From Escherichia coli (GTDB taxonomy: Bacteria > Pseudomonadota > Gammaproteobacteria > Enterobacterales > Enterobacteriaceae): 64,000 nt of DNA. Under the pieces are notes generated by a model. It saw only the letters and a list, made by a program, of their open reading frames with translations, made no database searches and was not told the DNA's origin. The DNA lies in the NCBI RefSeq assembly GCF_003334315.1, contig NZ_QOWR01000021.1; one strand, 5' to 3'. This document shows, in pieces, positions 19,926 through 30,636 of this stretch (within the stretch, counting starts at the first letter, position 1; each line of letters starts with the position of its first letter). The position numbers and the translations under genes were made by a program.

Positions 19926-20348
19926 ATGAACACACTACGTTATTTTGATTTTGGAGCTGCCCGCCCCGTTTTGTTATTAATTGCCCGTATCGCCGTGGTC
20001 TTAATTTTCATTATTTTTGGTTTTCCCAAAATGATGGGCTTTGACGGTACGGTCCAATATATGGCCTCGTTGGGCGCGCCAATGCCGATGCTGGCAGCGA
20101 TTATTGCGGTAGTTATGGAAGTGCCCGCCGCGATATTAATCGTGCTTGGCTTTTTCACCCGTCCGCTGGCGGTGCTGTTTATTTTCTACACGCTGGGTAC
20201 GGCGGTGATTGGTCACCATTACTGGGATATGACCGGCGATGCGGTTGGGCCAAATATGATTAATTTCTGGAAGAATGTCAGTATCGCTGGCGCGTTCTTG
20301 CTATTGGCAATTACCGGGCCGGGGGCAATTTCTCTCGATCGGCGTTAG
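19926..20348 (+). CDS. yphA: DoxX-family inner membrane protein YphA
   Basis: Hydrophobic ORF; start set to MNTLRYFDF (140 aa). Confidence 0.85.
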
Positions 20349-20354
20349 GAAAGA

Positions 20355-20387
20355 TGCCGGATGCGGCGTGAACGCCTTATCCGGCAT
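20355..20387. repeat. Single REP unit between the convergent yphA and yphB
   Basis: gccggatgcggcgtgaacgccttatccggc. Confidence 0.85.
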
Positions 20388-20395
20388 TTAATAAA

Positions 20396-29000: not shown

Positions 29001-29418
29001 GTCCCAGCAGCCCCACCAGCGCAGGTTTAATGACTTCATTGTGATAGACAAAATCGCGCTGTTTCACTTTATCCCATGCGCGATGCACCCGACCGCCCAG
29101 TTCCGGCAGGATCATCACTTTGATGTAGTCGTTTTCCAGCCACACCGCCTGCCAGGATTTCAGGGTTTTCTGCTCGCTCAGCGTATCGGTCACGCCGTAG
29201 GGATAAACCGCGCCGGACGATCCCTGATAAACGCGATTTTCCAGGAACATGGGATGTATATCCTGCGGCCCGGTTTCATAGGTCGGGATCTCAACGCGCT
29301 CTTGCCACACTTTTACTGGAGTCATGGTGCCCTCAATATTAACAAGACATACTGAATTAAAAGATTTTTGGCAGTGTATTGAACAATCTGGCAATGTTTT
29401 CGCGGAATAATCACGCAA
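26044..29418 (-). CDS. yphG: Large uncharacterised protein YphG (N-terminal domain of unknown function plus C-terminal TPR-like repeats)
   Basis: Single 1124-codon ORF; its first codon is TTG; an internal ATG at 29328 has a GAGG Shine-Dalgarno and may be the true start. Confidence 0.85.
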   Translation of the reverse strand: MRDYSAKTLPDCSIHCQKSFNSVCLVNIEGTMTPVKVWQERVEIPTYETGPQDIHPMFLENRVYQGSSGAVYPYGVTDTLSEQKTLKSWQAVWLENDYIKVMILPELGGRVHRAWDKVKQRDFVYHNEVIKPALVGLLGPWISGGIEFNWPQHHRPTTFMPVDFTLEAHEDGAQTVWVGETEPMHGLQVMTGFTLRPDRAALEIASRVYNGNATPRHFLWWANPAVKGGEGHQSVFPPDVTAVFDHGKRAVSAFPIATGTYYKVDYSAGVDISRYKNVPVPTSYMAEKSQYDFVGAWCHDEDGGLLHVANHHIAPGKKQWSWGHSEFGQAWDKSLTDNNGPYIELMTGIFADNQPDFTWLDAYEEKRFEQYFLPYHSLGMVQNASRDAVIKLQRSERGIEWGLYAISPLNGYRLAIREIGKCNALLDDAVALMPATAIQGVLHGINPERLTIELSDADGNIVLSYQEHQPQELPLPDVAKAPLAAQDITSTDEAWFIGQHLEQYHHASRSPFDYYLRGVALDPLDYRCNLALAMLEYNRADFPQAVAYATQALKRAHALNKNPQCGQASLIRASAYERQGQYQQAEEDFWRAVWSGNSKAGGYYGLARLAARNGHFDAGLDFCQQSLRACPTNQEVLCLHNLLLVLSGRQDNARLQREKLLRDYPLNATLWWLNWFDGRSESALAQWRGLCQGRDVNALMTAGQLINWGMPTLAAEMLNALDCQRTLPLYLQASLLPKAERGELVAKAIDVFPQFVRFPNTLEEVAALESIEECWFARHLLACFYYNKRSYNKAIALWQRCVEMSPEFADGWRGLAIHAWNKQHDYELAARYLDNAYQLAPQDARLLFERDLLDKLSGATPEKRLARLENNLEIALKRDDMTAELLNLWHLTGQADKAADILATRKFHPWEGGEGKVTSQFILNQLLRAWQHLDAREPQQASELLHAALHYPENLSEGRLPGQTDNDIWFWQAICANAQGDQTEAMRCLRLAATGDRTINIHSYYNDQPVDYLFWQGMALRLLGEQHTAQQLFSEMKQWAQEMAKTSIEADFFAVSQPDLLSLYGDLQQQHKEKCLMVAMLASAGLGEVAQYESARAELTAINPAWPKAALFTTVMPFIFNYVH

Positions 29419-29442
29419 TTAACTAAACAAGGTTTAGTGAAG

Positions 29443-30636
29443 ATGAGAGCCTGCATTAACAATCAACAGATCCGCCACCATAACAAATGCGTGATTCTGG
29501 AACTGCTGTACCGGCAAAAGCGCGCCAATAAATCAACGCTGGCCCGACTGGCGCAAATTTCGATTCCGGCAGTCAGTAATATTTTGCAGGAACTGGAAAG
29601 CGAAAAACGGGTGGTGAATATCGACGATGAAAGCCATACGCGCGGGCATAGTAGCGGTACATGGCTGATTGCGCCGGAAGGTGACTGGACGCTGTGCCTG
29701 AACGTGACGCCCACCAGTATTGAGTGTCAGGTTGCTAATGCTTGTTTAAGTCCGAAAGGTGAATTTGAGTATTTACAGATTGATGCACCGACGCCGCAGG
29801 CGCTGCTGTCCGAAATCGAAAAATGCTGGCATCGCCACCGTAAATTGTGGCCGGACCATACCATCAACCTGGCGTTGGCAATCCACGGTCAGGTTGATCC
29901 TGTGACCGGCGTGTCGCAAACCATGCCGCAAGCGCCGTGGACAACGCCGGTGGAGGTGAAATATCTGCTGGAAGAGAAGCTCGGCATTCGGGTGATGGTC
30001 GATAATGACTGCGTGATGCTGGCGCTGGCGGAGAAATGGCAAAATAATTCGCAGGAACGGGATTTCTGCGTGATCAACGTTGATTACGGCATTGGCTCGT
30101 CGTTCGTGATTAACGAGCAAATTTATCGCGGCAGTTTGTATGGTAGCGGACAGATTGGTCACACCATCGTTAATCCGGATGGCGTCGTCTGCGACTGTGG
30201 ACGTTATGGCTGCCTGGAAACCGTCGCCTCGTTAAGCGCATTAAAAAAACAGGCGCGGGTATGGCTAAAATCACAACCGGTTAGTACTCAACTTGATCCT
30301 GAAAAACTGACTACAGCGCAGTTAATCGCTGCCTGGCAAAGTGGAGAACCGTGGATCACCAGCTGGGTTGACCGCAGTGCCAATGCCATTGGTTTGAGTC
30401 TGTATAACTTCCTCAACATCCTCAATATTAATCAGATTTGGTTGTACGGTCGCAGTTGTGCCTTTGGTGAGAACTGGCTTAATACTATTATTCGCCAGAC
30501 AGGATTTAACCCGTTCGACCGCGACGAAGGACCGAGCGTGAAAGCGACGCAAATTGGCTTTGGGCAATTAAGCCGCGCACAACAGGTGCTGGGAATTGGC
30601 TATTTGTATGTTGAGGCGCAGTTACGACAGATTTGA
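29443..30636 (+). CDS. yphH: ROK-family (NagC/XylR-like) transcriptional regulator YphH
   Basis: N-terminal HTH plus ROK sugar-kinase-like domain; start set to ATG at 29443 (397 aa). Confidence 0.88.
   Translation: MRACINNQQIRHHNKCVILELLYRQKRANKSTLARLAQISIPAVSNILQELESEKRVVNIDDESHTRGHSSGTWLIAPEGDWTLCLNVTPTSIECQVANACLSPKGEFEYLQIDAPTPQALLSEIEKCWHRHRKLWPDHTINLALAIHGQVDPVTGVSQTMPQAPWTTPVEVKYLLEEKLGIRVMVDNDCVMLALAEKWQNNSQERDFCVINVDYGIGSSFVINEQIYRGSLYGSGQIGHTIVNPDGVVCDCGRYGCLETVASLSALKKQARVWLKSQPVSTQLDPEKLTTAQLIAAWQSGEPWITSWVDRSANAIGLSLYNFLNILNINQIWLYGRSCAFGENWLNTIIRQTGFNPFDRDEGPSVKATQIGFGQLSRAQQVLGIGYLYVEAQLRQI

Follow-up and report, generated by a model that had tools for sequence, protein, structure and literature searches.

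The yph locus of Escherichia coli, located at positions 19926–30636 of the 64,000-nucleotide stretch of contig NZ_QOWR01000021.1 analysed here (the window), is best viewed against two described systems. The De Ley–Doudoroff pathway for D-galactose, taken together with the dgo operon of E. coli, proceeds from transport through a mutarotase to an NAD-dependent aldose 1-dehydrogenase, a succession that the yph genes appear to share. In oxidative aldose pathways the 1-dehydrogenase is anomer-specific. The Entner–Doudoroff-type sulfofucose pathway of Paracoccus wurundjeri comprises an ATP-binding cassette (ABC) importer, an optional aldose 1-epimerase, a dehydrogenase, an SGL lactonase and a DgoD-family dehydratase that acts on a galacto-configured sugar acid, and its gene cluster also holds a Tdh-like zinc-dependent medium-chain dehydrogenase/reductase (Zn-MDR) of unknown role (bioRxiv 10.1101/2023.08.01.551581).

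That the yph cluster is uncharacterized is already common knowledge. An earlier sequence-only reading of the window had treated its substrate as not established, and this is in line with our literature searches, full text included, which found no functional study of the E. coli yph genes, of DUF5107 (PF17128) or of the structure 5cd6 (BDI_1685). We favour, at a probability of roughly 45%, a model in which the YphH-controlled operon yphGFEDCB was assembled from two units, both of which would act on a free sugar of D-galacto configuration, with D-galactose itself and near analogues (for example, D-fucose, L-arabinose or a 6-modified galactose) as candidates. New in this analysis are the division of the cluster into a YphH/YphG unit and a mobile cassette that putatively oxidizes a galacto-aldose, a new assignment for YphC, a correction to the start of yphG, and the recognition of YphG as a member of a large and highly conserved cytoplasmic family, which combines a predicted mutarotase fold with tetratricopeptide repeats (TPR) and occurs in galactoside-utilization loci across phyla. 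The coherent catabolic module proposed by the sequence-only reading is thus retained as an intact sugar-utilization locus, and it is replaced, as a single module, by a mobile yphFEDCB cassette fused to a yphH-yphG unit.

The yphFEDCB cassette and its putative substrate

Five genes on the minus strand encode an importer, a dehydrogenase and a mutarotase. The importer is composed of YphF (24964–25947, 327 aa), a periplasmic sugar-binding protein with a Sec signal peptide ending in ARA/AD, the tandem-domain CUT2 ABC ATPase YphE (23430–24941, 503 aa) and the CUT2 ABC permease YphD (22407–23405, 332 aa). With a Peripla_BP-type binding protein carrying a signal peptide, one BPD_transp_2 permease and a tandem ATPase, YphDEF has the composition of a CUT2 monosaccharide importer. 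YphD matches RbsC (227 bits) and AraH (222 bits) and YphE matches AraG (456 bits) and XylG (435 bits), all under the cut-offs, and the matches of YphF to allose, galactose, autoinducer-2 (AI-2), rhizopine and galactofuranose binding proteins are weak. The best match of YphF in the Protein Data Bank (PDB) is 5hsg (E 3e-24), which is named just as a putative ABC transporter protein. Indeed, the equivalog cut-off of NCBIfam is reached by no Yph protein. The G+C content dips to 0.45 across yphF (25000–25999), within the cassette and beside its seam with yphG, versus 0.55–0.57 over yphC, yphD, yphE and yphG.

YphB (20396–21268, 290 aa), encoded by the last gene of the cassette, is an aldose 1-epimerase (mutarotase) identical to PDB entry 3nre, which carries that name (E 5e-210), and possesses the mutarotase β-sandwich fold. 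In GalM the catalytic residues are H96, H170 and E304; YphB has the invariant residues H83 (LHGDG), H148 (WHPYF) and E253 (CLEP) (alignment A3), matched to GalM by motif and not by superposition. The Pfam family Aldose_epim (PF01263) is recorded on the YphB orthologues. YphC (21280–22374 in RefSeq) is a Zn-dependent, probably NAD-linked MDR dehydrogenase. It contains the catalytic Cys, the His–Glu pair, the four-Cys structural zinc motif and a GxGxxG...D motif (GICGSD, GHEPCG, CGFCPNCRRGFPISC and GLGPVG...VD), and its Zn-MDR membership is in agreement with the recorded families PF08240 and PF00107. The GxGxxG...D motif suggests that NAD+ is the cofactor. In NCBIfam, YphC scores 171 bits for Tdh (cut-off 380), 169 for IolM (450), 108 for GatD (550) and 90 for IdnD (469).

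The five-gene cassette is syntenic in Acidisoma cellulosilytica, Vibrio nigripulchritudo and two further contigs, which provide four contexts outside E. coli. Identities to the E. coli proteins are 49–53% for YphF, 53–57% for YphE, 65–70% for YphD, 61–75% for YphC and 42–50% for YphB. Outside Enterobacterales the cassettes contain neither yphG nor yphH and have GntR/FCD regulators instead. A mutarotase adjoins YphC in all four contexts, and in three of them the next gene encodes an enolase-superfamily (MR_MLE) dehydratase. These adjacent dehydratases pass the NCBIfam equivalog cut-off for galactonate dehydratase (DgoD), with 577, 339 and 342 bits versus 311, and the one in the Vibrio cassette matches E. 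coli dgoD at the DNA level. Extra genes encode a short-chain dehydrogenase/reductase (SDR) in two contexts and an SGL-family lactonase in one. In the E. coli cluster itself, the mutarotase alone is present of this mutarotase/lactonase/dehydratase linkage. A YphC homologue with 58% identity (locus L086) was not counted as a cassette, as it lies in a tripartite ATP-independent periplasmic (TRAP) transporter context without an epimerase.

A mutarotase, a dehydrogenase, a lactonase and an aldonate dehydratase together form the pattern of oxidative aldose catabolism of the De Ley–Doudoroff, Weimberg or Dahms type, and by analogy the cassette would serve to import an aldose of D-galacto configuration, equilibrate its anomers and oxidize it at C1. 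The orthologues of YphC always have a mutarotase as neighbour, and in most cases a DgoD-type galactonate dehydratase or a lactonase as well, which favours an aldose 1-dehydrogenase for such a sugar over a polyol dehydrogenase as the function of YphC. The sequence-only reading had named it a Zn-dependent polyol dehydrogenase; the motifs bear out the zinc-dependent enzyme, whereas the gene context speaks against the polyol.

In the model that we favour, YphF would bind the sugar in the periplasm and YphDE would import it. YphB would equilibrate the anomers, and YphC would oxidize C1 with NAD+ to give the aldonolactone and subsequently the aldonate. The aldonate would then be passed to the unlinked dgo genes (galactonate dehydratase, kinase and aldolase), making the cassette a De Ley–Doudoroff-type entry. 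Both dgoD and dgoA are found elsewhere in the E. coli chromosome, in more than 5000 genomes.

The predicted fold of YphG and its gene neighbourhoods

YphG (26044–29325, minus strand) is a cytoplasmic protein of 1093 aa, in which Pfam identifies DUF5107 at residues 39–324 (E 3.1e-55) together with TPR repeats. With 68 diverse full-length homologues as input, AlphaFold2 gave a very confident model, with a mean predicted local distance difference test (pLDDT) score of 94.9 and a predicted template modelling (pTM) score of 0.93. The model is β-rich over residues 1–435 and forms a helical solenoid over residues 460–1093. Its domains are a galactose-mutarotase-like β-sandwich corresponding to DUF5107 (approximately 1–345), a small β domain (approximately 350–435) and the TPR solenoid (460–1093). 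In structural comparison, the uncharacterized structural-genomics DUF5107-TPR protein 5cd6 scores 34.7 with 546 residues aligned. Stand-alone mutarotases (Bacillus subtilis GalM, Slr1438, yeast hexose-6-phosphate mutarotase, YeaD, YphB (3nre) and Lactococcus lactis GalM) score 18–23, and entries of glycoside hydrolase (GH) families GH38, GH94, GH65 and GH2 and of polysaccharide lyases (PL) score 12–16, which we read as matches of β-sandwich domains. Foldseek agrees with the mutarotase-like fold of the N-terminal domain; against AFDB50 it returns just DUF5107 and TPR proteins without a functional name. A glycoside hydrolase or lyase fold had been considered for this domain by the sequence-only reading. 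The modelled N-terminal domain does have a catalytic-type fold, which is mutarotase-like, as in the stand-alone enzymes, and not a GH or PL catalytic fold. In Pfam it belongs to DUF5107 only and not to PF01263.

Polar residues that are invariant among the 68 sequences (alignment A1) include, in the sandwich, H123, N179, N192, H215 and E313, and, in the TPR solenoid, W563, R782 and E880. Residues H123, N192, H215 and E313 face identical residues in the crystal structure 5cd6, which is 21% identical to YphG. H123, H215 and E313 follow the order of the GalM His/His/Glu residues, a correspondence of order only and not of superposition, and the expected strand position is held by N192. The first 455 residues of E. 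coli YphG are 52–58% identical to homologues from Bacteroidota, Clostridia, bacilli and bifidobacteria, which is unusually high for a domain of unknown function. When residues 1–455 are modelled without the TPR part, the most strongly conserved loops (26–44, 117–123, 212–253, 283–285 and 320–325) lose confidence. Since these loops are confident only in the presence of the solenoid, the models hint that the active site lies at the interface between the sandwich and the TPR domain.

The family is large, with 3931 cluster representatives matching at E ≤ 0.001, and all YphG homologues examined lack a signal peptide. Two distant DUF5107 proteins (P0237 and P0266, approximately 38% identical to the N-terminal region of YphG) have a segment resembling a signal peptide at the N-terminus. 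As far as can be read from the sequences, with no domain scan, each also possesses an additional domain at the C-terminus, which in P0237 is endonuclease/exonuclease/phosphatase-like and in P0266 resembles carbohydrate-binding module family 9 (CBM9). Some DUF5107 branches are thus probably secreted and glycan-directed.

The neighbourhoods of YphG were scanned in 80 loci, using one genome per species; open reading frames (ORFs) were called and clustered, cluster representatives were annotated, and the counts refer to the 78 loci with a called YphG ORF. The loci come from Enterobacterales, Aeromonas, Photobacterium, Bacteroidota, Clostridia, Paenibacillus, Bacillus, Bifidobacterium and a spirochaete. 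An AraC-family regulator, usually divergent and adjacent, is present in 50 of the 78 loci, and a sugar-porter transporter of the major facilitator superfamily (MFS; XylE-like) in 43. Glycosidases are frequent. A GH2 protein (closest NCBIfam family, exo-beta-1,4-galactosidase BT4151; closest PDB entry, 8u01) occurs in 32 loci, a GH35 beta-galactosidase in eight and a GH97-type alpha-galactosidase in four; GH2/GH35 genes neighbour YphG in 33/78. A beta-L-arabinopyranosidase-like protein and GalM are each found in seven loci, a CUT2 ABC system related to YphFED in 12 and, in marine Flavobacteriia, sulfatases in eight. Galactose is the theme of these neighbourhoods. In Mucilaginibacter and Chitinophaga, the Zn-dehydrogenases encoded near YphG resemble quinone oxidoreductases and were not accepted as YphC orthologues.

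Gene order provides further indications of the position of YphG in metabolism. In the Merdimonas contig (L071), a substrate-binding protein, an AraC regulator, YphG, a small protein, a GalK-like protein, GalE and GalT are encoded in this order, with GalE and GalT above the cut-offs. In the Enterocloster contig (L028), YphG is followed by an SDR gene resembling aldose dehydrogenases and by an IlvD/EDD dehydratase. The GH2 partners have signal or lipoprotein peptides in Bacteroidota and not in Firmicutes. As YphG is devoid of a signal peptide while the Bacteroidota GH2 enzymes possess one, YphG would meet its substrate in the cytoplasm, after uptake or intracellular cleavage. Canonical aldose epimerases occur alongside YphG in 18 of the 78 loci, so that YphG is not a simple replacement for GalM. 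By analogy, its place in the operons would be the processing of a free sugar between release or transport and the first anomer-specific enzyme, either a kinase or a 1-dehydrogenase.

In our model, YphG is accordingly pictured as a cytoplasmic enzyme whose active site would lie where the mutarotase-like β-sandwich meets the TPR solenoid, and which would act on the free sugar before the first anomer-specific catabolic step. The reaction may be an acid/base ring opening through His123, His215 and Glu313, leading to an interconversion of anomers or ring forms (for example, furanose to pyranose) beyond that performed by GalM or YphB. We put forward this mutarotase-type reaction tentatively, with the odds clearly below even. 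In three Lachnospiraceae loci, a conserved protein of approximately 137 aa (c30) is encoded directly after yphG (L028 4013–4426, L033 11314–11733 and L071 5233–5646). It has a weak Ureidogly_lyase match only, and it may be a partner of YphG.

Two cluster types are found in Gammaproteobacteria. In type i (Escherichia, Enterobacter BIGb0383, RIT691 and Budvicia), yphFEDCB follows yphG, and outside Escherichia an additional sugar porter follows yphB. In type ii (Aeromonas, Photobacterium, Citrobacter, Cedecea and Enterobacter Ag1), a yphH-like gene is divergent from a yphG-like gene, which is followed by a sugar porter and a YphB-like epimerase (31–36% identical to YphB); yphC and yphDEF are missing. 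In Enterobacteriaceae, both types occupy one chromosomal position between glyA/hmp and hcaT. In the flanks of L003, L008, L012 and L014, a second CUT2 ABC system lies near the yph position, accompanied by an FGGY pentulose kinase (703 bits, above cut-off) and a 200-aa protein. Several Enterobacteriaceae have this second CUT2/FGGY sugar operon, which is not in the E. coli window. Two Aeromonas species contain a 612-aa ORF directly upstream of the yphG homologue in the same orientation (L007 8100–9938 and L006 7742–9040), with no Pfam or NCBIfam match.

Gene calls, control elements and integrity of the locus

The interval belongs to the E. coli chromosome, with many complete genomes matching at 100% identity, and is flanked by hcaD on one side and glyA on the other. 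The spacers among yphB, yphC, yphD, yphE and yphF are 11–32 nucleotides (nt) long and the yphF-yphG spacer is 96 nt. Given the short gaps and the shared strand, yphGFEDCB forms a single transcriptional direction, divergent from yphH. The family assignments of the sequence-only reading were all reproduced (YphA, DoxX; YphB, aldose 1-epimerase; YphC, Zn-dependent MDR; YphDEF, CUT2 or 'ribose-type' ABC importer; YphG, DUF5107 with TPR; YphH, ROK), and two of its other calls had to be revised. The 1124 codons given for yphG correspond to an ORF extended to a TTG codon. E. albertii, Enterobacter, RIT691 and Budvicia all keep the ATG at 29325 with its GAGGG ribosome-binding site, and the stretch under the TTG extension aligns as a conserved non-coding regulatory region; YphG therefore has 1093 aa. 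The second revision concerns yphA (19926–20348, plus strand), annotated in RefSeq as a DoxX-family inner-membrane protein of 140 aa, which had been included in the cluster. It is convergent with yphB on the opposite strand and is missing or displaced in relatives: the clusters of Enterobacter BIGb0383 and Budvicia lack it, and isolate RIT691 has it at the opposite end; in terms of the scanned loci, L003 and L005 do not contain it, and in L004 and L014 it adjoins yphH instead of yphB. Its single NCBIfam match is weak (HvfX, 41 bits). We consider yphA probably a bystander outside the sugar system.

The start of yphC may also need correction. RefSeq gives 364 aa in this strain, and homologues from other genera and phyla have 348–354 aa and align from the internal ATG at 22341, so the annotated start is probably 11 codons too early and the protein 353 aa long. 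Plus-strand ORFs of 160–276 aa at 20878–21666, 22468–23298, 26793–27302 and 28864–29355 are antisense to yphB/yphC, yphD and yphG. Their translations are of low complexity, rich in Pro, Arg, Ala, Ser and Thr, and look like by-products of composition rather than genes. In Escherichia albertii (L002 19089–22358), yphA is followed directly by hcaT and the counterpart of the gene at window positions 11994–13292. The phenylpropionate dioxygenase genes hcaR-hcaEFCBD, which in E. coli lie between hcaT and yphA (window 14400–19830), are apparently absent there.

YphH (29443–30636, plus strand, 397 aa) is a ROK-family transcription factor of the NagC/Mlc type, composed of an N-terminal helix-turn-helix and a ROK domain with the zinc motif CDCGRYGCLE (CxCGxxGCxE) visible in its sequence. 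Profile matches to NagC (111 bits) and Mlc (106 bits) cover residues 9–341 and remain far under the equivalog cut-offs. Previous work described YphH as the third, uncharacterized ROK repressor of E. coli, in a separate small clade (PMC4288165), and in 2022 it was still listed among the transcription factors of unknown function (PMC9308461). In the 10 gammaproteobacterial loci, yphH is always divergent from yphG, and YphH presumably responds to a sugar and represses the divergent operon through the conserved spacer. This control region (29326–29442) has a mean column identity of 74% across five genera including Budvicia. It contains a conserved inverted repeat, TTAACTAAAC/GTTTAGTGAA, at 29419–29441 directly before the yphH start, and this palindrome is a candidate YphH operator. 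Neither a sigma-70 consensus match nor a CRP-like site was found in the control region; a CRP-site scan of the whole window gave fewer sites than chance predicts, and the sigma-70 and terminator scans were not above the shuffled expectation.

At the seam between yphG and the cassette, the yphG-yphF spacer contains a GC-rich, conserved stem-loop on the minus strand (25991–26027; minimum free energy −16.1 kcal/mol, z −2.9). Its arms, TGAGCGGC/GCCGCTCA, are kept in E. coli, E. albertii, Enterobacter and RIT691, with a variable loop, and no T-run follows it. It may be an mRNA-stabilizing or attenuating element that sets the relative expression of both units.

The sequence-only reading had also allowed for a decaying, non-functional locus, and this alternative is refuted by several observations. 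At least 80% of the interval was found in 5370 of 5426 complete E. coli genomes (99%). All eight yph genes are intact, with no stop codons, in four other genera, and the ratios of nonsynonymous to synonymous substitution rates (dN/dS) relative to these genera are 0.01–0.18, indicating strong purifying selection; yphC is the most constrained (0.01–0.04) and yphB ranges from 0.06 to 0.18. The spacers are likewise conserved. In addition, YphF has been detected by proteomics, rising 3- to 4.6-fold under one growth condition (PMC8753852). We set this rise aside as a clue to specificity and keep it as expression evidence only, as it was seen in an engineered strain on levoglucosan in which many other sugar transporters also rose.

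Alternative readings and comparison with known systems

Several points weigh against a D-galacto-configured sugar processed by YphG, YphB and YphC. The E. coli cluster (19926–30636) contains neither a lactonase nor a dehydratase, and the closest profiles of YphC are Tdh and IolM, with no aldose dehydrogenase among them and no equivalog cut-off reached. For YphG, hhalign gives a probability of 0.1 between its N-terminal alignment (A2) and the YphB-family alignment (A3), showing no profile similarity to Aldose_epim. In YphG, the sequence WWANPA occupies the strand on which mutarotases have their second catalytic His, so that the equivalence of the YphG residues to the GalM catalytic set is putative. 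The size (1093 aa) and conservation of YphG suggest more than simple mutarotation needs. Moreover, the neighbouring glycosidases belong mostly to pyranosidase families and do not favour a furanose substrate. We know of no mutants in the Leloir, arabinose or fucose routes of E. coli that are rescued by the yph locus, which implies that the locus is silent in the laboratory or that the true sugar is something else. Finally, the substrates of DgoD-like enzymes can include 6-modified galactonates, sulfogalactonate for example (bioRxiv 10.1101/2023.08.01.551581).

One alternative takes YphG for a new cytoplasmic glycosidase or phosphorylase that cleaves a small imported galactoside (a disaccharide or glycosyl-polyol), leaving YphB to mutarotate the galactose and YphC to oxidize the sugar or the aglycone. 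It would agree with the many invariant acidic residues of YphG (D85, E116, D208, D214, D240, D301, D306, E313 and D325) and with the GH2/GH35 genes adjoining YphG, and a mutarotase downstream of a glycosidase follows the classical lacZ-galM logic. The distant, probably secreted DUF5107 proteins, one of which has a domain that is CBM9-like by reading rather than by domain scan, suggest a glycan-directed activity in some branches, and DUF5107 is enriched beside digestive enzymes in phagotrophic protists (PMC8163842). The linked transporters, however, are of monosaccharide types (sugar-porter family and CUT2), and the Bacteroidota GH2 partners are periplasmic, so that the imported species should already be a monosaccharide; we regard this alternative as improbable. 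A sugar alcohol or cyclitol as substrate, oxidized by YphC as the polyol dehydrogenase of the sequence-only reading, with YphB and YphG processing the resulting sugar, is in our estimate quite improbable. Sorbitol, xylitol, galactitol-1-phosphate and scyllo-inosose dehydrogenases are indeed among the best profiles of YphC, the rhizopine binding protein is weakly matched by YphF, and an IolM-like Zn-dehydrogenase and UxaB/UxaA-like genes lie near YphG in two Ruminococcaceae loci. Yet all such profile matches fall far under the cut-offs, and the constant pairing of the YphC orthologues (61–75% identity) with an aldose 1-epimerase, joined in three of four contexts by a galactonate dehydratase equivalog, fits C1 oxidation of an aldose and not the oxidation of a polyol.

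YphG might also be no enzyme at all and instead serve as a scaffold or co-regulator that senses a sugar, its sugar-binding β-sandwich being linked to a TPR platform for protein interactions, and that modulates the transporter or the neighbouring regulator (AraC or ROK). In favour of this, TPR solenoids mediate interactions between proteins, 59 of the 78 loci have a regulator gene either adjacent to yphG or divergent from it, and no reaction can be assigned to YphG. Against this, the cross-phylum identity of 52–58% is concentrated in the loops round the His/Asn/His/Glu set, as is typical of an active site, the partner regulator switches from the AraC to the ROK class while YphG is unchanged, and YphG is embedded in catabolic operons, with transport on one side and GalK or a dehydrogenase on the other. 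This role appears very unlikely to us. A cryptic, decaying remnant without present function would be consistent with the lack of a known laboratory phenotype or substrate and with a control region devoid of promoter consensus matches; the near-universal presence of the interval, the genes intact in five genera under purifying selection, the conserved regulatory spacer and ribosome-binding sites, and the detected rise of YphF protein reduce its chance to almost nil.

Beyond the model of a two-unit operon for a D-galacto-configured sugar, the DUF5107-TPR proteins could be an unrecognized, pan-bacterial cytoplasmic enzyme of galactose or galactoside catabolism, performing a step missing from textbooks, with E. 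coli also holding a silent De Ley–Doudoroff entry (YphFED, YphB and YphC) that feeds dgo. This broader claim is rather doubtful at present. The step may be the conversion of the ring form or of a derivative of a galacto-configured sugar, or the hydrolysis of a small galactoside, at the sandwich/TPR site. The yph genes count among the larger sets still unexplained in the best-studied of all bacteria, and the substrate is now narrowed to a short list of galacto-configured sugars, directly testable with a concrete assay for each protein. YphG is no oddity of E. coli, as its family occurs in galactoside-utilization loci of gut and soil Bacteroidota, Clostridia, bacilli, bifidobacteria and Proteobacteria. 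Its reaction, once assigned, would fill a gap in the processing by bacteria, including gut commensals, of galactose from plant, algal and dietary glycans, and would annotate thousands of genes together.

In likeness to the De Ley–Doudoroff pathway, the orthologous cassettes carry a DgoD-equivalog dehydratase and sometimes an SGL lactonase and an SDR, whereas the E. coli yph cluster has no lactonase, dehydratase, kinase or aldolase and is not a complete cluster of this type. YphC belongs to an uncharacterized Zn-MDR subfamily, its sugar being a candidate only; to our knowledge, the known galactose dehydrogenases belong to other families. The sulfofucose pathway of P. wurundjeri is likened to yph by gene content and not by sequence, and its aldolase and sulfolactate genes were not seen in the yph locus or in the yphFEDCB-like cassettes examined.

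YphG differs from the GalM/aldose 1-epimerase family (PF01263, including YphB, YeaD and YihR) in the lack of detectable sequence or profile similarity, in its large loop insertions and in the Asn at the expected strand His. Moreover, its active site appears to be completed by the 630-residue TPR solenoid to which the sandwich is fused, and YphG co-occurs with canonical epimerases. The crystal structure 5cd6 from Parabacteroides distasonis is 21% identical to YphG, approximately half as long and has a short TPR part. In role, the proposal for YphG finds its analogues in the ribose pyranase RbsD and in FucU and RhaM, which are small proteins of approximately 100–150 aa. Their folds are unrelated to that of YphG, but the task would be the same, namely to bring a free sugar, once imported or released, into the ring form or anomer needed by the first committed enzyme.

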